NCBI GenBank assembly: GCA_038279365.1
Contig: JAYODI010000059.1
Coordinates: 1 to 37,760, forward strand
DNA: 37,760 nucleotides
Direction: 5' to 3'
Origin: Candidatus Latescibacterota bacterium
GTDB lineage: Bacteria > Latescibacterota > UBA2968
Positions within the stretch are counted from its first letter, which is position 1; each line of letters starts with the position of its first letter. Positions 3,053-36,795 of the stretch are shown piece by piece. Made by a program: the position numbers and the translations under genes. The notes under the pieces were generated by a model. The model was given only the letters and a program-made list of their open reading frames with translations. It did no database searches and was not told the origin of the DNA.

Positions 3053-3084
3053 GGATAAATAATGTAACAATTGCTGGGGTTTGT

Positions 3085-4182
3085 TTATTGTTTTTTATCG
3101 CGGGCAAGAATATCCCATACGGTTTCGACAACATTGTTGCGAATGCCATAGATGCGGTCGTGTAAAAAAACGGTCATATCGCTGTAACCAGAGATCAGTT
3201 CGAGTGTGTCTCCAATTTTGATGGCAGGCGATGGGTTGTCCAGTTTTAAGGTGGCATGTTCTGCGGATAAACCTGTGACGGTGATGCCTGAATGGCCTTT
3301 GACTTCTGGCATCGAAAATTGGCTGCTGGTGGTTTTTCTGCCGGCATCGGTTATGGCTCGGTGCGGGGCTGGATGGCTAAGAACGGTGGTAAGAATGGTT
3401 AAGGCTTGGCCCAAACCAGTTACATGGAGGTCGTTTTTATAGAAAGTGTCCATGAAAATGCCTCCACCGGCTTGTATTTCCGTAATGCCAGCTTGATCGG
3501 GCGTAAAGGCCAGTGTGCCTGTGCCCCCTGCACTCACAATGTCTACTTTGAGGCCTTCTTTTTCGATAAGGGTTTTTGTTTGGGCAAGATGTGCAATGGC
3601 TTCGCGGCAGGATTTTTCCTTTTCGAGATCGGGTAGAGCCATGGCATGGCCTTCATAGCCCATGATGCCAGCAAATGCAACACCTGGTGCAGCATCGGCT
3701 TGTTGGGCCAATGCAAGAGCGGGTTTGCCAGGGGCAACACCACAACGGTCCATGCCAATATTGACCTCAACCAGAATGGGCACTGTGGTATTGGCTTTTT
3801 GAGCGGCATCAGAGATGGATTGAATATGGAAGGGGTCATCAACGGCCACCATCACATGGGCTTGGCGTTGGAGGTGGGCAAGGCGGGTAACTTTTTGGTG
3901 TCCAACGACTTGATTGGCCACGAGAATGTCTCGAATGCCTGAGGCGGCCATAATTTCGGCTTCGCCAAGTTTGGCACAAGTGATGCCCAATGCGCCTGCC
4001 TGGATTTGTTTGTGTGCAATGGCAGGGGTTTTGTGCCCTTTGCTGTGAGGGCGCCATTCCAGACCGTTTTTTTTGCAACGTTCTGCCATAAGGCGCATGT
4101 TGTTTTCCATCATATCGAGATCAACGAGCAAGGCTGGGGTATCGAGATCCCATTTTGAGATGCCGATGGGTGAGTAGGACAT
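3085..4182 (-). CDS. DSD1-family PLP-dependent enzyme (D-threonine aldolase / D-serine dehydratase-like, alanine racemase fold)
   Basis: LDTPALLVD, WRPHSKGHK (PLP lysine), GMDRCGV, MGYEGH, SAGGTGT, DAGRK, LSAEH; start moved to MSYSPIG on a GGAG RBS. Confidence 0.9.
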   Translation of the reverse strand: MSYSPIGISKWDLDTPALLVDLDMMENNMRLMAERCKKNGLEWRPHSKGHKTPAIAHKQIQAGALGITCAKLGEAEIMAASGIRDILVANQVVGHQKVTRLAHLQRQAHVMVAVDDPFHIQSISDAAQKANTTVPILVEVNIGMDRCGVAPGKPALALAQQADAAPGVAFAGIMGYEGHAMALPDLEKEKSCREAIAHLAQTKTLIEKEGLKVDIVSAGGTGTLAFTPDQAGITEIQAGGGIFMDTFYKNDLHVTGLGQALTILTTVLSHPAPHRAITDAGRKTTSSQFSMPEVKGHSGITVTGLSAEHATLKLDNPSPAIKIGDTLELISGYSDMTVFLHDRIYGIRNNVVETVWDILARDKKQ

Positions 4183-4296
4183 GGTGGCTCCATAAAAGCA
4201 AATAAATACGATCGGATTGTGAAGGTTCGGCTGAATATCATAAAAGGGGTTGGCGCAGGAAAGCGTCAACCCCTTTTTGCTTTAAATCAAAATGGT

Positions 4297-5307
4297 TTAT
4301 ACCAAATGTGGGTTGCTGGCGCCCCATTCGGAAAGTGGAGGAAGGATGCCGGCTTCGATAACGGCCTCGCGCAGTGCCACAACGTGTTTGTAGGACTCTT
4401 TGAGGGCATTGATATCGTCTTCTGTGCCTTCGGGCATGGTGTAGGTAACACCCTTGCTGGATAACGTGGCGGGCATACCCATCATGATGTGGTTCATGCC
4501 GTGGCTGTTGACGTAGGCACCGCTTGGCCACTCGTAAGATTCTCCCAAAACACCACGCAACATAAACACACTTTGTTGAGCAGGTGATTGGAATGAGGAG
4601 CGACCGCGCAGCTCGATAATGCGTGCGCCACCTCCTCGCACGTGGGCTTGTACATTTGCCCATTCTTCGGCGCTCATGCCAATGCCATTGGCTGTTTTGC
4701 CGTTGAGCACATCTTCGAGGGAAACACCATCAATTTTGATGCCACCTTTAAAGACCGCCATTTGTTCACCATGACCACCATAAGTGCGACACCCAGTCAC
4801 TTTGCTTTGTAAGACGTTGAAGTGTTGGGCAAGTTTGGTTTGTAGGCGCGTGCTGTCGAGGGCGGCAAGTGTTGAAATGCGGCTGGGTTCGAGGCCTGAG
4901 TGCACCAATGTGGTGAGGCCTGTAATATCGGCAGGATTAAAGATGATGATCCCAAACTTAAGCTCGGGGCAATATTTTTTGATATCGAGGCCCAATTGTT
5001 TGGCTATTTGGGCATTGTCGCGTAACAAATCTTCGCGTGTCATGCCCTCTTTGCGAGGGGCCCCCCCTGAACTGATAATGTAAGACGCACCGCTGAGGGC
5101 TTCGCCAATATCGGTTGAGTAGGTGATGTTGGCATTTGGAAAACCACAATGAAACAATTCTTCTGCGGTGCCTTCGAGTCCTTTGGCAAATGGATCATAC
5201 ATGCCAACGGTGGAGGTGGTACCTGAGGCCAACAGGGTTTGTGCGAGATTTGAGCCAATAGCACCTGCTGCGCCCAAGACAACTACTTTTTCGTCGGTAA
5301 GATACAT
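4297..5307 (-). CDS. mdh: Malate dehydrogenase
   Basis: GAAGAIG, GAPRKEGMTREDLL substrate loop (Arg = MDH specificity), FNPAD, LDSTR, GGHGE. Confidence 0.9.
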   Translation of the reverse strand: MYLTDEKVVVLGAAGAIGSNLAQTLLASGTTSTVGMYDPFAKGLEGTAEELFHCGFPNANITYSTDIGEALSGASYIISSGGAPRKEGMTREDLLRDNAQIAKQLGLDIKKYCPELKFGIIIFNPADITGLTTLVHSGLEPSRISTLAALDSTRLQTKLAQHFNVLQSKVTGCRTYGGHGEQMAVFKGGIKIDGVSLEDVLNGKTANGIGMSAEEWANVQAHVRGGGARIIELRGRSSFQSPAQQSVFMLRGVLGESYEWPSGAYVNSHGMNHIMMGMPATLSSKGVTYTMPEGTEDDINALKESYKHVVALREAVIEAGILPPLSEWGASNPHLV

Positions 5308-13791: not shown

Positions 13792-13832
13792 AAAAGCCGT
13801 CGATGTGTGTGATCACATCGACGGCTTTTTTT
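13792..13832. terminator. Bidirectional intrinsic terminator between the barrel gene and folD
   Basis: 16-bp perfect inverted repeat aaaagccgtcgatgtg / cacatcgacggctttt. Confidence 0.85.
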
Positions 13833-14719
13833 TAAGCGATGTTGTTGGTGCGTTTGGCAGACCAAATGGTGTTGTAGAGTAACATCGTGATGGTCATGGG
13901 GCCCACGCCGCCTGGAACGGGGGTGATGGCCGAGGCCACTTCTTTGACATGTTCATAATCGACATCACCAATGAGGCGGAAGCCATTTTTCTTAGACTTG
14001 TCTTCGATGCGGTTGACACCCACGTCGATCACCACGGTGCCTTCTTTGACCATGTCGGCGGTGACGGTGTTGGGATATCCGGTTACGACAATGAGGATGT
14101 CGGCTTGGCGCGTAAAATGCCCCAAATCTTTGGTGCCCGTGTGACAGATGGTAACGGTGGCGTTGGCGTCTTCGCCTTTTTGGGAGAGGATATTGGCCAA
14201 GGGTCTGCCCACAAGGGTGCTTCGACCGACAATGACAATGTGTTTGCCTTGGGTGTCAAAATTACCACGTTTGAGAATGTGTTGCACGCCGTGAGGGGTG
14301 CAGGGCAAAAAACCTTCTTCGCCGCGCATCAATCGACCCAAATTGACCGGATGAAGTCCATCGACATCTTTTTCGGGAGAGATGGCGTTGAGGGCTTTTT
14401 GTTCGTTGAAGCCTTTGGGCAGGGGCAATTGCACGAGGATGCCGTGAATGGTTGGGTCATTGTTGAGTTTTTGGATGAGATTGAGCAGGTCTTCTTCTGG
14501 TTGGTCGGCTGTGAGGTTGTACTCAACAGAATGCAGACCAATGTCGCTACAGGCTTTGCGTTTGCCTTTGATATAAGAAAGGGAGGCGGGGTCATCACCC
14601 ACCAATACAACGGCAAGGCCTGGGGTGAGGTTGTGCTTGGCTTTGAGCTGGGCAACATCATTGGCCATTTCGGCACGCATGGTTTTGGACAGCGTGGTGC
14701 CACTGAGAATTTGAGCCAT
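13832..14719 (-). CDS. folD: Bifunctional methylenetetrahydrofolate dehydrogenase / methenyltetrahydrofolate cyclohydrolase
   Basis: PGLAVVLVGDDPASLSYIKGK, GILVQLPLP, KDVDGLHP, PCTPHG, TPVPGGVGPMT; AAGGAG RBS supports start at 14719. Confidence 0.97.
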   Translation of the reverse strand: MAQILSGTTLSKTMRAEMANDVAQLKAKHNLTPGLAVVLVGDDPASLSYIKGKRKACSDIGLHSVEYNLTADQPEEDLLNLIQKLNNDPTIHGILVQLPLPKGFNEQKALNAISPEKDVDGLHPVNLGRLMRGEEGFLPCTPHGVQHILKRGNFDTQGKHIVIVGRSTLVGRPLANILSQKGEDANATVTICHTGTKDLGHFTRQADILIVVTGYPNTVTADMVKEGTVVIDVGVNRIEDKSKKNGFRLIGDVDYEHVKEVASAITPVPGGVGPMTITMLLYNTIWSAKRTNNIA

Positions 14720-14751
14720 GGGCAGGTCTCCTTTTGGGTATCTGACCCGAC

Positions 14752-14792
14752 ATAAAAATACGCCTGGGCCATTGTGTGTGGGCGCCCAGGCG
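14752..14792 (-). terminator. Riboswitch expression-platform terminator
   Basis: CGCCTGGGC-loop-GCCCAGGCG-TATTTTT; the 5' arm is the riboswitch pseudoknot/P3 strand. Confidence 0.8.
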
Positions 14793-14888
14793 GTCGGCAA
14801 GTTGCAAAAGTAAATAGCGTTTACGCTTTACTTTTAAGTCCAACGCTCCCTCGTGGTTGTTTCCACGTTTCCGCCAGTTACGTTGGGG
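14783..14888 (-). promoter_or_regulatory. ZTP/ZMP (pfl motif) riboswitch
   Basis: Minus strand CCAACG-TAACTGGCG-GAAAC-GTGG-AAACAA-CCAC-GAGGGAG-CGTTGG...TGCCGACCGCCTGGGCG matches the pfl consensus (ACUGGCG / GGGAGC / GCCGNCCGCCUGGGC); lies upstream of folD. Confidence 0.93.
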
Positions 14889-14903
14889 GTATCTGTTTTA
14901 ATA

Positions 14904-29232: not shown

Positions 29233-32145
29233 TTATGCCGGTTTGCCAAAGGCTGCCGCAAAGGTTAAGAAGTCGGAAAATCCCACGCTGCCATCTTGGT
29301 CTAAGTCAAATTTGCTGTTAAAAGATGGGGTGACTGTGCGACTGCCAAATGCGCCTGCAAAGGCCAAAAAGTCAGAAAAACCCACTGTTCCATTGCCATC
29401 AAAGTCTGGGGTTAAGGCCACGGTTGTGGTAGCCGTTGCAGACCCTGTTAGGGAGACTATTTGGGTGCCTCGGTCTGGGTCATTGCTCAATATTTGAAGG
29501 GTGCCTGTGTGTTTGCCGCCCGATGTGGGCGCAAAAATCACATTGGCTGTTGCTGTTGCACCTGCATCAATAGAGAGCGTTTTTTCAGAAACCGAAAATG
29601 GGGCTTGGGTGACAAAGCTGGTGATGGTGAGTGTTTGGCTGCCGTTGTTGGTGATGTTTAGGGTTTGTGTTTGTGTTTTACCCGTAGAGACATCCGACCA
29701 CGTTAACGATGTGTTAGCCAGTGTGATCACTGGGCGTGCAGTAACAACATAGATGGGGCCAAACCTGCCCAAAAAAGGTAGGCTTTGTCCTTTTGTGCCA
29801 CCAAATATGATCATTTCATATTGGCCAACTTGTGCGTTGGTAAATTGAATATCATTTGCGCTAAATTGTCCGTTGGTCACATCTAGAAAGTTGTCAATGT
29901 CGGTACCGCCAGCTGTGGGTGAAAAGCTGATGGCAATTTGGGTGATGTTGTTGGATACTGTGCCAGAAATTTGGCGGGATTGTCCGGCCACAAATGTGGT
30001 GTTTAATGGCGCACTCAAAACCACATTGTCAAAAAGGTCTACGGGCAAGTTGATGGTTTCATTGCCAGTGGTGGTCACCACAATGGGCGAAAAAACACCT
30101 CGGTGGGGTACTGAGCCACCTGAAGGGCCTCCAAACAAGTTGAGTTCGTATGTGCCTGCTTGCTCTGGTGTAAAGACAAAACCTTTTCGAAATGTGCCGT
30201 TGGTGACGTTGGTTTGGATGCGAATATCGGCACCACCTGCTTTGGGTGTAAACACCAAGAGGAGCACTTCAATGGTGTTGTCGGTTACTTGCCCAACAAA
30301 CGATGCCCCTTGCCCTGCCTGATATTGTCCGGGAAGCGGGGTGCTTAGTGTTATGCCATTGAAGAAGTCGGTGGGCAAATTGACGGTGCCACTGCCAGCT
30401 GAAACAAGGGCACCGGAAAAACGACCCACTTGGGGCAACAGCGCTCCTTGCTGACCGGCATAAACGGCCAAGGTATATTCACCAGCCTGAGAGGGGGCAA
30501 AGATCACGCTTTGGCTAAAACGCCCTGCTGAAACATCCAGTGAAAATTGAATTTCTTCTCCAGATGCATCACGGGGTTCATAGGAGAGTAAGATGCGTGA
30601 AATGGAGGCATCACTCACACTGCCAGAAAAAGTAATGCTTTCACCTGCGGTATAAACGGCCGAAAACGGCGCATCGAGGGTGAGCTTTTGAAAGAAGTCT
30701 GTGGGAAGTGACAAGTCGGGAACAAAGTTTTTGGGAAGGGGAATGTAAATGGCACGAAAGCTGCCTGCCACATCGGTTTGGATTTGTATGTTTTGTGATC
30801 CGGTGCCTGTTAGGCGAATAAATGCGCTGGCTGCTGGGCGAACCGAGCCCGATACTGTGGTGGTGGTGGTGTTTATTTTTTGTTCTTTTGGCAACGGAAA
30901 ACTGCGTTTTTTGCTTTGGGATTCGGTAAAGTATTGAAAGCTATAATTGAGGGATGTGTCTGTATTGATGTTGTTGCCACTTAAAAAAAGACGGGATATA
31001 AAAGTGCGATAGACCGTGTCAAAGGATTGACCCGAAATGTTTTCAATATTGGCAATGTTGACCTTATTGGTTTTTACCAGTTTACCTGGTACATCTTGGC
31101 CAAAGGATTCCAAGAGACCGCGTACAAACAGATAAGCCGCCCCGCGAATGCCCAAATTGAGCGATGCATCTCCTGTAAGGGCATAACGTTCGGGGTTGTT
31201 CATAAATTCTGAGACCAGGTCTGTGTTGCCCCCTGCGATGTGCCCACCCACAAGATCTTCGGCCACATGAGACAAGCCCTCATTTAACCAAGTTTCTTCA
31301 GCATCACCATTTTGGATGAGAACGTGTTGGTTAAAGTTGATAAGGTGTTGAAATTCATGAGCCAAAAGTGCATCATAAGAGGCCAATTCTTGCGTGGGGC
31401 TAATAAACATCATGTCGGCCACATTGCCATCACCGCCCTGGTTGGTCGAAAAGAGAGAACTGGACGCATAAAAACCTGCAACCCCGCCTACGCGGTCAAC
31501 AAGGTGTGTATATAAAAAGATGACTTTGCCGTCGTTGTCTACATCCGATGGTGCCCCGTACATGTTGGTAATGGTGGCAAATGTGCTGTTGCTAAATGTA
31601 TTGAGCATGGCTTCAATTTGCGCGGTGGTGATGTTTTTATCTGAAGCGGCAAGAGCATTGTCAAGATAGGCAACGGCGCGGGTGTTGGTGGCAACCAATG
31701 TGGCTGTAACCGTTTGGTTGGATGTGACACCCCCAAATTTTCCAAATGTGAATGATCGTGTGCTGCCTAATTGTTGAGATTGAACAATTTTTTGACGAGG
31801 TGGAACCCATCCAGTTTGTTGGATGCGTTTTGCAAAATCTTGTTCTTTTTGACGCAATACATGTTCAAAACGGTCGCGTGGGGATGTATGAGACGAAAAT
31901 ATAGAAGGATTAAGAAGCGCAGATGCAACACCTGTAGATACGGTGTAATTGTATGTGCGGGTGGTATCGGTGGCATTGGTTTGCCCTGAGTAGAGCATGA
32001 GTTCGTAGTCGTTGTTGGTAAAATCTAAGCTGAGCGAACCAGATCCATTGGAGAGCGTGACGGTGGTGGGGGTGCCTATCGTTTGGGCATGCAATGGAAG
32101 GGCGTGGACAAAAAGCAAAATAGACAGGATGATGGTGCGGTTCAT
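29233..32145 (-). CDS. Large secreted zinc metallopeptidase (HExxH...NEG) with three Ig-like repeats, ASH/choice-of-anchor-D domain and C-terminal EF-hand/dockerin-like pair
   Basis: Signal peptide MNRTIIL...LHA; DVDNDGKVIFL, LAHEFQHLINF, WLNEGLS; ITNNGSQTLTI...SNDPD; DFDGNGTVGFSDFLAFAGAFG and DLDQDGSVGFSDFLTFAAAFG. Confidence 0.85.
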   Translation of the reverse strand: MNRTIILSILLFVHALPLHAQTIGTPTTVTLSNGSGSLSLDFTNNDYELMLYSGQTNATDTTRTYNYTVSTGVASALLNPSIFSSHTSPRDRFEHVLRQKEQDFAKRIQQTGWVPPRQKIVQSQQLGSTRSFTFGKFGGVTSNQTVTATLVATNTRAVAYLDNALAASDKNITTAQIEAMLNTFSNSTFATITNMYGAPSDVDNDGKVIFLYTHLVDRVGGVAGFYASSSLFSTNQGGDGNVADMMFISPTQELASYDALLAHEFQHLINFNQHVLIQNGDAEETWLNEGLSHVAEDLVGGHIAGGNTDLVSEFMNNPERYALTGDASLNLGIRGAAYLFVRGLLESFGQDVPGKLVKTNKVNIANIENISGQSFDTVYRTFISRLFLSGNNINTDTSLNYSFQYFTESQSKKRSFPLPKEQKINTTTTTVSGSVRPAASAFIRLTGTGSQNIQIQTDVAGSFRAIYIPLPKNFVPDLSLPTDFFQKLTLDAPFSAVYTAGESITFSGSVSDASISRILLSYEPRDASGEEIQFSLDVSAGRFSQSVIFAPSQAGEYTLAVYAGQQGALLPQVGRFSGALVSAGSGTVNLPTDFFNGITLSTPLPGQYQAGQGASFVGQVTDNTIEVLLLVFTPKAGGADIRIQTNVTNGTFRKGFVFTPEQAGTYELNLFGGPSGGSVPHRGVFSPIVVTTTGNETINLPVDLFDNVVLSAPLNTTFVAGQSRQISGTVSNNITQIAISFSPTAGGTDIDNFLDVTNGQFSANDIQFTNAQVGQYEMIIFGGTKGQSLPFLGRFGPIYVVTARPVITLANTSLTWSDVSTGKTQTQTLNITNNGSQTLTITSFVTQAPFSVSEKTLSIDAGATATANVIFAPTSGGKHTGTLQILSNDPDRGTQIVSLTGSATATTTVALTPDFDGNGTVGFSDFLAFAGAFGSRTVTPSFNSKFDLDQDGSVGFSDFLTFAAAFGKPA
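29740..30714 (-). repeat. Three tandem ~110-aa (330-nt) intragenic domain repeats
   Basis: LSLPTDFF (30714), VNLPTDFF (30384), INLPVDLF (30054); each ends AG.Y.L..(F/Y).G..G...P..G.F. Confidence 0.85.
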
Positions 32146-32187
32146 AGACATACCCTTGTAGATGGTAATGATTGTAAATAAAGGATA

Positions 32188-32286
32188 TAAAAAATAAGGG
32201 CCATCAGCACTCGGCGCTGCCAAGTGTCGCTGATGGCCAAAAGCACCCGGTGTGTTCGTCGGGGGGCGAACACACACCAGATACCT
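32188..32286 (-). ncRNA. Candidate structured leader / small RNA (two hairpins plus U-tract), unassigned family
   Basis: Hairpin 1 at 32285-32242 with CCCCCCGA loop and several G-U pairs; hairpin 2 at 32238-32199 followed by CUUAUUUUUU; promoter directly upstream. Confidence 0.6.
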
Positions 32287-32291
32287 CGGGC

Positions 32292-32320
32292 AGTATAGGT
32301 TTTAAGAATTTAAAAGTCAA
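32292..32320 (-). promoter_or_regulatory. Near-consensus sigma-70 promoter overlapping the WYL gene stop codon
   Basis: TTGACT-N17-TATACT. Confidence 0.75.
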
Positions 32321-34902
32321 GTTGAACTCATTCGTTTAAAATATTCACCCGTAAGGCGTGCAAAGTGAATTCGATCTGTGCGAAAAACGCGATCCCCTTT
32401 GCGTTCACGACAAAAGGCATAGAGCATTGTCGGGTCTTCAGAAAAGGGTTCAATGAGCCGTTTGGGCGCGTTGGTATCGTTGCCATAGGCAATTTCGACA
32501 CACAATTGGTGATCTATGGCATAGGCAATAATGGCACGCATTTCACTGGGCTGTGTAGATGGGTTTGCACCAGTAAAACGAAGCAGTTCTTCAAGGCCAT
32601 CTTTGGGGCTTTTGGTGGGTTGTAACAGGGTTTGTAACAGGGCACTGTATCGGTCAGACGCTTCCTTGCGTGGGGTATCTGGGCTTTGGCGCAAGGCACG
32701 TTTAAAACGCCTGATGAGATGGTGCACGGTTTCAAGGTGTTCATTTGACTTTGCTTCAATGGCTTCGCGTGTTGTTTCTAAAAATGCAACCAAATCGGAT
32801 AATTCATTGGTGCTAAAGACCACTTGATGTCGGTTTTCGTGGTTGGGTGATTGTGTTTGCAAAAGATTGGGCATATACCCTTGGCGATGTAAAATTTGTA
32901 AGAGGGCTTCGGGGCGGTTGCTTTGATTGAGTGCCGCAATGGTCGGAGACAGACGTTGATCCAATGCTTGGGCAATGGTTTTTTGGGCATAGAGTTCATC
33001 CAATAATGCAGGTGTTTCAACCTTAAGAAAGCCCACTGCTGGGAAGAGCTCAATTTCGCCAAACTTACTTTCGCACTCTGTAATAAGTGCATTGACAATT
33101 TCTGGTAAGCCTGTGGCACTGTGTGTTTTAAAAAAGGTGCGAATGCTTTCGCCCGTTTCCCCTCTGTTGAGTGCTTGTTGTATGGCATCTCCAGTGATGC
33201 CAAAGGTGGTCATCACATCTTGGTTTTGGAGATCAGCCAACCCACAAAGGGTTATGTAAACAGAAGGCATGATGTCGGGTGGTGCGAGGACTTCAAAGTT
33301 GGGTTGTACGACAATACGTGAATTGGGGTTTTGTGGGGGAATGTTTTCCTTTAAAGCTTCCGTATTTTTGTGATGCAACAGTGCCAGTCCTGCTGGTGTG
33401 AGTTGAAATGTGGCTTGTTCACTGCGGTGAAGGGGCTGGGCAAAGGCGGCTGGTGGACCCGTGCGTAAAATTCCCATCCAAGAAAGTGCACCACTGAGTA
33501 TGCGGCGTAAGAGTTCGTCGGCAGTGGTGCCTCCAGCAGCAAGATTGCGCCCAGTGGATGGGGTTTCTGAGATATGTCGGAACGTATCGGATAAACGTAT
33601 CAAATATTGGTAAAATGACGGATACGTAATCCATTGGTTGGGCTCTAATTGTGTGAGTGCTTGTCCGATGGCCTGGCGCACACCTTTGAGGTCCATCATT
33701 TTGTTGCTGTTGGCGGTGTTTCTGTCGGTGGCCCATTCGTTCCAGCGGTCTGTTTGTTGCCAAAAGGCGAAGAGGGCTTGGCGTGTTTCAGCAATATCAG
33801 ACAGACGTTGTCCACTTTCTGGTGCTGTCCGCCAAATGTCTCCTTGGGGTTTGACCAGGCCTGCTGTTTCCACAAAAAGCATTAAAAATTCGATATAACC
33901 TGGGTCTGTTTCTCCTTGGCAAAAACGTGCCGATTCACGCAAATCGCTTTTGGGAATGCCACCGTGTTTAAGGCGACGTGGCAAGCGGCGTTCGATCAGG
34001 CCAAGGAGCGTTGCCAAATCGGAAAAAAGATAGGGTGTGTTGTCGTGTGGGGATGCGGGAGGGCTTAAGGGGCTGACCAGCAAGTCGTCTACTTGGCTTT
34101 CCAGTTGACCGCCTTGTTTTTTTGCTATTTTTTGTAAAACGAGGCGCAAATCGGTGGCCAAAGAGATGGGGGCATCTTTGTCTTTTGGATCGGCTGTGGG
34201 GCTATAACACAATGGTGTTTTCCACAGCAAATCTTCTAACTCTCTTTGTGCATTTTCACCTAATTTTTCTTCTACTTCTTGGCGTGTTGCCGTTTGATTT
34301 ACAAGCAAAAAATCGAGCACGGCACGACGCTCTTCGGTTTGATTTTGCAAATATGTTTTGAGCGTATCTGGGGTCAATAAGGCGTGATGAATGGCTCGAA
34401 TGAGCAAGGGGCGGCGGGTATCGGAAATGGAGAGTTGGAGTTCTTGAGCCACATTGCGCAAAATGCCCACAGAGACTTCTTTAAGAACAAAGCGCAATCT
34501 GCCACGATTTTTGGCAGACAGTGGAATCGATTTTAACAAGGCATCGGGAATGCCAATAAGGGGATAATCTGGCATTTCATTGTCTCGAAAGACCAATCCC
34601 ACAGCCGTGAGTTCATCAATTTGGGCCCGAAGACGGTGTTCAAAGCCGTTGGCCAGTTCTTCAATGGCATCTTCTTCAAGCAACTCCCCACCTTCTGCAA
34701 TGATATCTTGAATCAGTTTTTGTTGCGGTTTTGTGAGGGCTTCTACTGTGGTTGCTATCTGTTCGGGGTCGGGCAAGTATTGACATAACTGGTCAATCAA
34801 GACCGTTTTGTTGACTTGTGTGTCTAAGGCTTGGCCCAGTGTTTGGGCAAGCTTTTTTAATTCTGGGGTGGGGTATTGGCTAAGAACCGTACGCAGTTTC
34901 AT
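32317..34902 (-). CDS. XPB/Ssl2-associated (Helicase_C_3) domain protein with C-terminal WYL domain
   Basis: RIVVQPNFEVLAPP...ITGDAIQQALNRGETGESIRTFFKTHSATGLP (Helicase_C_3); AIDHQLCVEIAY...RLIEPF...LYAFCRERKGDRVFRTDRI (WYL); no Walker A motif seen. Confidence 0.85.
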   Translation of the reverse strand: MKLRTVLSQYPTPELKKLAQTLGQALDTQVNKTVLIDQLCQYLPDPEQIATTVEALTKPQQKLIQDIIAEGGELLEEDAIEELANGFEHRLRAQIDELTAVGLVFRDNEMPDYPLIGIPDALLKSIPLSAKNRGRLRFVLKEVSVGILRNVAQELQLSISDTRRPLLIRAIHHALLTPDTLKTYLQNQTEERRAVLDFLLVNQTATRQEVEEKLGENAQRELEDLLWKTPLCYSPTADPKDKDAPISLATDLRLVLQKIAKKQGGQLESQVDDLLVSPLSPPASPHDNTPYLFSDLATLLGLIERRLPRRLKHGGIPKSDLRESARFCQGETDPGYIEFLMLFVETAGLVKPQGDIWRTAPESGQRLSDIAETRQALFAFWQQTDRWNEWATDRNTANSNKMMDLKGVRQAIGQALTQLEPNQWITYPSFYQYLIRLSDTFRHISETPSTGRNLAAGGTTADELLRRILSGALSWMGILRTGPPAAFAQPLHRSEQATFQLTPAGLALLHHKNTEALKENIPPQNPNSRIVVQPNFEVLAPPDIMPSVYITLCGLADLQNQDVMTTFGITGDAIQQALNRGETGESIRTFFKTHSATGLPEIVNALITECESKFGEIELFPAVGFLKVETPALLDELYAQKTIAQALDQRLSPTIAALNQSNRPEALLQILHRQGYMPNLLQTQSPNHENRHQVVFSTNELSDLVAFLETTREAIEAKSNEHLETVHHLIRRFKRALRQSPDTPRKEASDRYSALLQTLLQPTKSPKDGLEELLRFTGANPSTQPSEMRAIIAYAIDHQLCVEIAYGNDTNAPKRLIEPFSEDPTMLYAFCRERKGDRVFRTDRIHFARLTGEYFKRMSST

Positions 34903-34919: not shown

Positions 34920-35390
34920 TTATTGTACAATGAATTTGACAAAGTAAATTTGTAGGATTTCTTCACCTTTTTTGAGGTGCTCATTGAGTGCAAACCGAAG
35001 CTCGTCTTTGATGACTTCACGGTCTTCGGGTGCATCCATTTCCCCAAGTTTTTTTGCCGAAAGAACCCGAATGACCGTGTCGCGCAGTTGTGGATTTGTT
35101 TGAGCGAGTTTGTCATGCACATGGGCGGGTGTGACACCCAATGTGATTTCGGTTTGAATAAAACGAAAACCTTGTTTGTCTACCGAGTCGGCTGGGTTAA
35201 TTAAAAACTCACCCATGTCGCGGTAGATGCGTTTGGGTTCGCTGCTGACTGCAACATCTACTTCAACTTCTTGCAGGGCTTCGGGAGGAGGACCAGACAA
35301 GCGGTGAATCACCACGTTGTTGATCAGAAGATAGGCCAAAATGGTTTGTCCAAGCACAACGAGGATCACCAAGGGCATGTATTTGTTCAT
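34920..35390 (-). CDS. fliL: Flagellar basal-body-associated FliL family protein
   Basis: N-terminal TM helix; GEFLINPAD, RFIQTEITL, PQLRDTVIRVLSAK, IYFVKFIVQ C-terminus. Confidence 0.88.
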   Translation of the reverse strand: MNKYMPLVILVVLGQTILAYLLINNVVIHRLSGPPPEALQEVEVDVAVSSEPKRIYRDMGEFLINPADSVDKQGFRFIQTEITLGVTPAHVHDKLAQTNPQLRDTVIRVLSAKKLGEMDAPEDREVIKDELRFALNEHLKKGEEILQIYFVKFIVQ

Positions 35391-35598: not shown

Positions 35599-36795
35599 TT
35601 ACTGGAGAAGCGTGAGTGCGTTTTGTGGAATGGCGTTGGCTTGTGCCAACAAGGACGTACTTGCTTGAACCAGTATTTGTGCGCGTGTAAATTGAGAGAC
35701 TTCGTCGGCCATATCGGCATCGCGGATGGTCGATTCGGAGGCTTGAACGTTTTCAATGGTGTTTTCAAGCGACCTTACTGTAAATCCTAAGCGATTTTGA
35801 ACGGCACCTAAGTCACCCCGTTGTTGTGCCACTGTCTCAATGGCCAAGTCTACGGTGTCCATGAGTGCACGTGCTGATGTGATGGTGCTTACCGATGAGC
35901 CTGCAAGGTTGAGAGAGGCGCCAGTGGCACGCATATCTTTGATGCTGACTTCAAATCGGTCTACGGCCGTGTTGTCTGCACCAATTTGGAAGGATCCACC
36001 GGTGCCGGCATCTACTTGAATGACCAACCCATCTAAGTCGCCATCGCGATAGCCATTGCTTGCAGGTGTAAATTGGTTGGCACCCCGTGCACCTGTGAGG
36101 GTCAGTTGAATACCCAAGCGGTCAAAGTTGGCCACAATGCTGCTGTTGGTGGCCACCACAGCGCCTGCTGCTGCATCGGTGTCGAGGGCTGTGCCAATGT
36201 CAATGGTTTGGGTGGTGACGCCATTGCCCAATGTGAGTTGATTGTCTGTGGCAACGTTATCTATAAATGTATATGTTCCTGCAGTTGCGCCAGTAATAGA
36301 GGCATCTACAACACCCGTTGTACCCGAGACCAGTGCGGTCGACACGGTGAGGTCTTTTGAGACCGTATTGCCAAAGCCTGTTAATAGGGTGGTGTTGTTG
36401 TAGCTTGTGGCACTGGCGATTCGATCCACTTCAGCGACCAACTGAACCACTTCGGCATTGAGCGCCGTTCGGTTGTTGTCGTTGAGTGTCGATGAAGCAG
36501 CTTGCACCGAAAGTTCGCGCATTCTAATGAGAATGGCACTGACTTCATTGAGTGCACCTTCTGCGGTTTGGATTAGGTTTGTACCGTGTTCTGCATTTCT
36601 GACGGCTTGTTTAAGGCCGACCAGTTCTGCTCGCATTCCCTCAGAAACTGAGAGCCCGGCAGCGTCGTCTGCTGCACGATTGATACGCAGCCCGGACGAG
36701 AGGCGTTCAATCCGCTGGGACAATTCCCGATTGTTAATCAGGAGTTGCCGCCGAGTGTTGAGAGCGGTTATGTTATTGTTTACCCGAAGTGGCAT
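35599..36795 (-). CDS. fliC: Flagellin
   Basis: ERLSSGLRINRAADDAAGL, QTAEGALNEV, RGDLGAVQNRL, ESTIRDADMADE, LAQAN; AAGGAGG RBS. Confidence 0.97.
   Translation of the reverse strand: MPLRVNNNITALNTRRQLLINNRELSQRIERLSSGLRINRAADDAAGLSVSEGMRAELVGLKQAVRNAEHGTNLIQTAEGALNEVSAILIRMRELSVQAASSTLNDNNRTALNAEVVQLVAEVDRIASATSYNNTTLLTGFGNTVSKDLTVSTALVSGTTGVVDASITGATAGTYTFIDNVATDNQLTLGNGVTTQTIDIGTALDTDAAAGAVVATNSSIVANFDRLGIQLTLTGARGANQFTPASNGYRDGDLDGLVIQVDAGTGGSFQIGADNTAVDRFEVSIKDMRATGASLNLAGSSVSTITSARALMDTVDLAIETVAQQRGDLGAVQNRLGFTVRSLENTIENVQASESTIRDADMADEVSQFTRAQILVQASTSLLAQANAIPQNALTLLQ

Follow-up and report, generated by a model that had tools for sequence, protein, structure and literature searches.

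A candidate family of structured, terminator-bearing RNAs upstream of a secreted peptidase gene in Latescibacterota

Between a helicase gene and the gene for a secreted, metallopeptidase-like protein lies a short stretch of Latescibacterota DNA that resembles a promoter followed by two hairpins. Does this stretch encode an RNA, and does such an RNA serve as a leader of the peptidase gene, as an independent small RNA or as the 3′-end of the upstream message? The locus is part of a 37,760-nucleotide stretch of contig JAYODI010000059.1, hereafter the window. To our knowledge Latescibacterota have no cultured members, and a full-text search revealed no paper describing regulatory RNAs in this phylum, the matches being unrelated as judged by title.

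Structure and conservation of the RNA

A preliminary description made from the sequence had placed a promoter, two hairpins and a terminator-like end on the minus strand. All sequences quoted in it were found on the minus strand of the window, and strand and anatomy are borne out by the coordinates, the fold energy and the conservation among homologues. The locus comprises the following features, in the order of transcription:

32317..34902, minus strand: upstream gene, 861 aa, with a Helicase_C_3 domain (open reading frame and domain search)
32319-32317, minus strand: stop codon TGA of the upstream gene, inside the -35 hexamer
32320-32315, minus strand: predicted -35 hexamer TTGACT (promoter scan and homologue alignment)
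32297-32292, minus strand: predicted -10 hexamer TATACT, with a spacer of 17 to the -35 hexamer and 10 of 12 consensus matches
32287-32240, minus strand: hairpin 1, with an outer helix (about 10 bp, covarying) and the inner helix GUUYG/CRAAC, separated by an internal loop or bulge
32189..32285, minus strand: predicted RNA of about 97 nt, its ends deduced from promoter and terminator (covariance model R1)
32266-32259, minus strand: apical loop of hairpin 1, CCCCCCGA, 8 nt, conserved in the alignment of homologues
32238-32199, minus strand: hairpin 2, the predicted intrinsic-terminator stem, with 9 invariant outer bp (GGCCAUCAG/CUGRUGGCC), then a GAC bulge and a variable inner helix
32238-32217, minus strand: 5′ strand of hairpin 2, GGCCAUCAGCGACRCUUGRCAG, 22 nt, nearly invariant in the homologue alignment
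32198-32189, minus strand: U-run after hairpin 2, CUUAUUUUUU (window sequence)
29233..32151, minus strand: downstream peptidase gene, about 970 aa (open reading frame and domain search)

The predicted RNA would start about 7 nt past the -10 hexamer and end within the U-run, and the covariance model R1, built from the window and 11 homologues, matches the window at 32189-32291 with 108 bits. A single unpaired base separates the two hairpins, and the ATG of the peptidase gene is located at 32151 or 32145, 37-43 nt past the U-run.

The homologues were obtained by BLAST of a 141-nt stretch against 60 related Latescibacterota genomes, which yielded one match each in 11 genomes representing seven genera, two families and one order. 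Because the feature is conserved in these 11 other genomes, we consider it to be beyond chance. The 106-nt stretch of the window has a predicted minimum free energy of -53.6 kcal/mol, compared with -30.0 +/- 3.2 kcal/mol for shuffled sequences (z -7.34), and none of 200 shuffles folded as well. When folded alone, each of the 12 homologous sequences gave the same two-hairpin shape. Moreover, the predicted fold is stronger on the sense than on the antisense strand in 10 of the 12 (mean -48.2 versus -44.3 kcal/mol), which lends modest support to the orientation.

The preliminary description had called for a check of conservation and covariation, and hairpin 1 displays both. Its inner helix and the 8-nt loop are conserved across homologues, with ACCCCCGA, UCCCCCGA and CCCGCCGA as loop variants, and its outer helix differs wholly in sequence between genera and nevertheless retains pairing. 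On a MAFFT alignment, which was not fitted to the structure, and with the structure of both hairpins given by hand, 85.8% of the cells pair and two-sided changes are seen in 10 of 24 pairs, a number that 1 of 500 shuffles attains; when the partner is shifted by 1-3 columns, pairing falls to 32-49%. With the model-fitted alignment, which is biased in favour of the structure, these values rise to 94.7% of cells and 13 of 24 pairs (attained by 0 of 500 shuffles), and all 13 two-sided changes fall within the 15 pairs of hairpin 1. An alignment-free check gave a consistent picture: duplexes of the hairpin 1 5′ arm with its own 3′ arm have a mean energy of -15.6 kcal/mol, those with 3′ arms from other genera -8.3 kcal/mol (sd 3.4), and the own arm beats every foreign arm in 9 of 12 sequences. 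The weak case is genome G051, in which 5 of 10 foreign arms are equally good. Thus, hairpin 1 is supported by compensatory change.

Hairpin 2 behaves differently. In the model-fitted alignment it lacks covariation, as 8 of its 9 outer pairs never vary, and the evidence for it consists only of thermodynamics and conservation. Its 5′ strand GGCCAUCAGCGACGCUUGGCAG is invariant except for a single A each in the window and in genome G011. The outer 3′ strand CUGRUGGCC is invariant as well, and the inner 3′ strand is variable, using at least three pairing registers with the invariant strand, mostly with GAC bulged. Since the 5′ strand is invariant and its partner is not, pairing alone is insufficient to explain the constraint. 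The stem has the hallmarks of an intrinsic terminator: a GGCC/GGCC stem base followed by a U-run is present in all 12 sequences, each with at least six U in the 10 nt past the stem (counted by eye), so that termination is predicted here. A simple terminator scan of the window region did not list hairpin 2, presumably because the bulge interrupts the stem.

Promoter, distribution and gene context

A promoter scan listed 6 promoter-like sites in 2.5 kb where 3.1 were expected, and the match in the window alone is therefore not significant. Conservation provides the stronger argument. The -35 hexamer reads TTGAC in 9 of the 12 sequences and TTGC in the other three, and the -10 hexamer is TATATT in all 11 homologues and TATACT in the window, hence TATAYT throughout at fixed spacing. 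With both hexamers conserved at fixed spacing in front of the RNA, a sigma-70-type promoter is predicted. In the window's own genome TTGAC-N17-19-TATAHT occurs 136 times, about threefold enriched over shuffled sequence (37-45), and 105 of the 136 copies lie outside long open reading frames, one of them preceding a tRNA gene. This distribution suggests that the promoter of the element is of the organism's ordinary type. Within hairpin 2 itself two further promoter candidates were considered and dropped. A sigma-70 promoter with the -35-like TTGGCA has no usable -10 spacing by eye, a sigma-54 promoter with the -24-like TGGCAG has a GG-to-GC spacing one base too long, and the 3′ part is unconserved.

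The element starts immediately at the stop codon that closes the upstream gene, which has no other terminator, and together with the insignificant single-genome scan this could mean that it simply provides the Helicase_C_3 gene with its 3′ untranslated end and its terminator, the promoter-like sequence being due to chance. We regard this as highly improbable. Both hexamers are kept at fixed spacing across two families, and the stretch between stop codon and -35 hexamer is not conserved among the homologues. Furthermore, helicase orthologues are present in all five sampled genomes that lack the RNA, and the element is absent beside each of them. Finally, a mere terminator would not preserve an invariant 22-nt strand together with an invariant loop. 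Two genomes of genus g7 (L054 and L055) carry neither RNA nor peptidase gene after the helicase gene; here a promoter of similar form, CTTGACA-N17-CTATATTGCGC, is located about 75-110 nt past the helicase stop and is followed after about 120 nt by a different protein gene, whose product begins MPLKYSIRENMAPGN. As separate observations on the upstream region, the Helicase_C_3 orthologues of three loci in genus g5 (L056-L058) can be aligned with the 861-aa window protein over residues 1-685 only and lack its C-terminal approximately 175 aa, and in the window the Helicase_C_3 gene is closely preceded by genes for flagellin (35599-36795) and FliL (34920-35390), which share the minus strand with the RNA.

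The preliminary description had named many dispersed genomic copies as a sign of a repeat element. The element is single-copy in the window's genome (6.03 Mb in 199 contigs) and therefore not a repeat. BLAST did not detect it in genus g5 (0 of 21 genomes) or genus g7 (0 of 15). An exact 21-mer of the hairpin 2 5′ strand occurs at 14 loci in public species genomes, and 11 of these belong to the same 11 genomes; the remaining three (L022, L029 and L031) are unrelated stretches without hairpins or promoter, that is, chance or coding matches. A search of 151 genomes of the phylum with R1 returned 10 genomes at E <= 0.01, including nine known members. The tenth, G125 (E 0.006), was rejected, as the matched stretch is a terminator that follows a tRNA gene and a tandem repeat and has no flanking homologues. 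The repeat in G125 (L043:700-800) consists of CTGCACGTATG-like units between the tRNA gene and the terminator. In metagenome contigs the 21-mer was found at 12 loci, nine of which are matched by R1; L089, L090 and L092 have no R1 match and were dropped as chance or coding matches. Four of the nine are identical to known members across the central 80 nt, and the other five represent three new variants (L096 = L097, L091 = L093, and L094, which is cut by the contig end).

The preliminary description had seen no match to known riboswitch consensus sequences, and cmscan against Rfam 15 agrees with this. At gathering thresholds no family was assigned to the element in the window; at E <= 10 the region 32100-32400 gave nothing but two chance matches to the opposite strand, and at E <= 1 the 12 homologous loci gave one unrelated match elsewhere. 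Across the window the gathering thresholds are passed by one RNA only, a ZMP/ZTP riboswitch (RF01750) at 14777-14891 on the minus strand, with 53.1 bits against a gathering threshold of 39; directly downstream lies a FolD-like gene (13832-14800) with THF dehydrogenase/cyclohydrolase domains, an ordinary pairing. Taken together, these data describe a structured RNA of about 95-110 nt that is clade-specific, is absent from Rfam and occurs at one type of locus in seven Latescibacterota genera. Four public metatranscriptome runs share 8-12% of the sampled words of a 1.2-kb query, and their contigs cover the flanking genes at 31700-31986 and 32671-32840, with a depth of 2-3, and none covers the element.

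In all 12 genome loci the element is located between a Helicase_C_3 homologue (39-83% identity) and a peptidase homologue, of which L012 retains just 35 aa before the contig ends. As far as the metagenome contigs reach, the helicase gene is present at eight and the peptidase gene at all nine loci. Asked whether homologues stay upstream of the same gene class, the answer is thus that the same peptidase gene follows in all loci. Since synteny is kept on both flanks, it cannot separate a role in cis from an independent small RNA gene. Peptidase homologues are encoded in 27 of 61 genomes, and the helicase gene adjoins the peptidase gene in only 10 of 30 loci examined, all of which carry the RNA. 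At the other 18 peptidase loci, an R1 search with its filters off detected nothing credible (best E 0.27).

The peptidase has a signal-peptide-like N-terminus, an HEFQH motif, an Ig-like choice-of-anchor-D/DUF1573 domain and a dockerin/EF-hand-like tail; its matches to HExxH protease families are below threshold only (DUF2268, E 0.007; MXAN_6640, E 0.0014). Four peptidase paralogues in genus g7 (L074, L075, L076 and L078) have a different shared leader about 250 nt upstream, namely a promoter-like box GGCTTGACA and, behind it, some 150-170 nt (by eye) that begin with GGTCGGCAGGA in L074, L076 and L078 and continue with GGTCGGCAGGACGGTCCCTTGCGCCTTC in L074 and L076. This may be another leader RNA or may reflect only close kinship.

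With start codons placed by eye at signal-peptide-like N-termini, the distance from the end of hairpin 2 to the peptidase start is 52, 56 and 58 nt in genus g1, 68 nt in G052 and 30-37 nt in G050, G011, G004, G051, G008 and G042; the outliers are G007 with 148 nt and G003 with about 4 nt. Given this gap of 30-68 nt in 10 of 12 genomes, a separate peptidase promoter cannot fit in most of them, and the peptidase message would thus have to start upstream of hairpin 2 and pass through it.

This geometry bears on the possibility that the element is a standalone small RNA, in which case the terminated transcript of about 100 nt would be the functional product and read-through into the peptidase gene incidental. 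Such an RNA might act in trans by pairing of its C-rich loop, perhaps also of the invariant hairpin 2 stretch, with G-rich ribosome-binding sites, or by binding a protein. Its own near-consensus promoter, the 5′ hairpin, the conserved unpaired loop and the conserved intrinsic terminator would all suit this function, and so would the occurrence of one copy per genome. Moreover, the RNA is intact in G003 although the peptidase gene is broken. In this genome (L088, G003:C1:762500-768200) the peptidase orthologue is interrupted at approximately 3080-4340 by about 1.26 kb of an IS630-like insertion with HTH and DDE_3 pieces in three frames, and the peptidase matches occur in several frames. The combination of an intact RNA and a broken peptidase gene fits a gene-independent function or a recent disruption, and it counts against a leader. 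Assembly errors are a possible cause of the frame changes.

Against a function in trans stands, besides the missing room for a peptidase promoter in most genomes, that the RNA was never seen away from one peptidase orthologue. Target searches were confined to the own genome and gave nothing above chance, their output being noisy without comparative data. GGGGGG located 3-12 nt before start codons yielded 63 rows, several of them repeating one site, which would favour pairing with the loop. However, the complement of the loop 10-mer occurs five times elsewhere, compared with a rough chance estimate of about 10, and the best off-locus match to the complement of the invariant 18-mer has 3 of 18 mismatches. 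In addition, no Hfq gene was found, as a search of the own, 98.5%-complete genome with PF17209 gave no match, which does not favour an Hfq-dependent small RNA. Taken together, we consider a standalone small RNA a serious rival reading and the main one, though rather unlikely.

Comparison with RNA switches and known RNA families

The preliminary description had noted that the 3′ arm of hairpin 1 is a near copy of the terminator 3′ arm. An alternative pairing of the former with the terminator 5′ arm would create a riboswitch or attenuator of the 1:2 / 2:3 / 3:4 type operated by the RNA alone. The near copy itself is present in the window, where 13 of 16 letters are alike by eye, and does not extend to the homologues, and the layout of promoter, leader, terminator and gene would suit attenuation. 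We compared the pairing of the hairpin 1 3′ half plus linker with the hairpin 2 5′ arm to 300 shuffles per sequence. In the window this pairing amounts to -9.7 kcal/mol versus a shuffle mean of -9.6 kcal/mol, with a fraction of 0.44 of the shuffles being at least as stable; for the other 11 sequences the fractions are 0.77, 0.32, 0.87, 0.05, 0.68, 0.80, 0.82, 0.01, 0.18, 0.42 and 0.22. Only in G004 and G007 is the pairing stronger than at least 95% of the shuffles, so that in 10 of 12 cases, the window included, the proposed antiterminator does not surpass shuffled sequence. Upon removal of the terminator 3′ arm hairpin 1 still forms in 11 of 12 predicted folds, the exception being G051, and no conserved antiterminator helix exclusive with the terminator was found in the 12 sequences. 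The arm of hairpin 1 varies freely, in contrast to its supposed partner, which is invariant. Moreover, the RNA consists of two plain hairpins without multi-stem junction or conserved pocket, has no Rfam riboswitch match and occurs once per genome in front of one gene only. As anticipated, a conserved leader peptide is likewise absent: in 13 sequences the leader reading frames share no frame, start or stop, and they differ in length, which argues against a leader-peptide attenuator. In view of these results, a switch operated by the RNA alone appears very unlikely.

We then compared the element with known systems. The 6C RNA of Actinobacteria, which we take to be Rfam RF01066, had been invoked as a partial resemblance. 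Both are small RNAs with an apical loop of six C, but the element has one C-rich loop and 6C RNA two, and the phylum is another one. Neither the window (E <= 10) nor the 12 homologous loci (E <= 1) gave a 6C match, and the resemblance does not hold beyond the single loop.

Riboswitch-derived SreA and EutX are promoter-proximal terminated leaders that double as small RNAs. The element shares with them a short terminated transcript predicted to arise from the promoter of the downstream gene; it differs in having neither an aptamer nor a known ligand class, and a role in trans would be putative.

BglG/SacY-RAT systems are leaders with a protein-gated terminator, in which the conserved sequence lies on the terminator 5′ strand and the 3′ strand only has to pair. 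The element has the same order of promoter, short leader, intrinsic terminator and gene, and the same combination of a conserved terminator 5′ strand with a 3′ strand that only pairs. It differs from them in several respects, as the own genome encodes no BglG-type CAT_RBD protein (PF03123), its gene is that of a secreted peptidase instead of a sugar operon, and it has no demonstrable conserved alternative hairpin. The one small alternative hairpin seen by eye within the invariant strand (GCCA..UGGC) was rejected, since two natural variants, the A of the window and GA in G011, weaken or break its pairing without compensation.

T-box leaders, presumably Rfam RF00230, likewise have conserved sequence overlapping the terminator 5′ strand. 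The loop of the element ends with GAC (GAU in G051) followed by a purine, and GAC and GAU are Asp codons. In addition, UGGC in the invariant strand is complementary to the GCCA 3′ end of the single tRNA-Asp of the own genome, which has the anticodon GUC. Accordingly, the RNA could be a miniature T-box-like sensor gated by uncharged tRNA-Asp. However, with about 100 nt it has no Stem I architecture, cmscan gave no T-box match in the window or the homologous loci, and UGGC forms part of the terminator hairpin instead of lying in an antiterminator bulge. It is moreover replaced by UGAC in G011 and in metagenome contig L098, and the regulated gene is not amino-acid-specific. We therefore hold gating by uncharged tRNA-Asp to be extremely unlikely.

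A proposed leader with a putatively gated terminator

Given that no conserved alternative fold was found and that the conservation exceeds what pairing needs, read-through is most likely set by a trans-acting factor. We thus favour, with about an even chance of being correct, the reading that the element is a promoter-proximal leader of the HExxH peptidase gene with a terminator gated in trans. The RNA would be transcribed from its own housekeeping-type promoter and form the 5′ leader of the secreted peptidase gene. Hairpin 2 and the U-run would stop the majority of transcripts some 30-70 nt short of the start codon, so that the main product would be a short terminated RNA of about 100 nt and the peptidase would be made only via read-through. 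The level of read-through would in turn depend on a factor acting in trans, whose recognition sites would be the CCCCCCGA loop, the GAC bulge and the terminator 5′ strand.

The more specific proposal that the loop, the GAC bulge and the terminator 5′ strand together form the docking surface of an undescribed factor deciding on read-through is itself unlikely, if clearly worth considering. Among the candidate factors, CsrA is encoded in the own genome. Conserved loop GGA motifs that would indicate CsrA binding are absent from the homologues, since GGA was seen by eye only in the variable 3′ strand of three of them. Because neither a BglG-type protein nor Hfq was found, the gating factor could be a new RNA-binding antiterminator.

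It is well supported that the element represents a candidate new RNA family of a known general kind, that is, a terminator-bearing leader or a small RNA. The family is narrow, being confined to seven genera and one locus type, and lineage-specific leaders or small RNAs of similar general kind are common. It combines a conserved promoter, a covarying helix, an invariant loop and a conserved terminator, and it is tied to a secreted metallopeptidase-like protein. The terminator strand, which is conserved beyond the need for pairing, offers a concrete handle for pull-down or mutational work. If uncharged tRNA-Asp were the signal, amino-acid supply would be linked to extracellular proteolysis, and if the conserved parts dock a factor, the element would represent a new class of factor-gated attenuator, here acting on a secreted protease of an uncultured phylum. 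Gating of the terminator, if real, would show how degraders among the Latescibacterota control extracellular proteolysis and would point to an RNA-binding factor.
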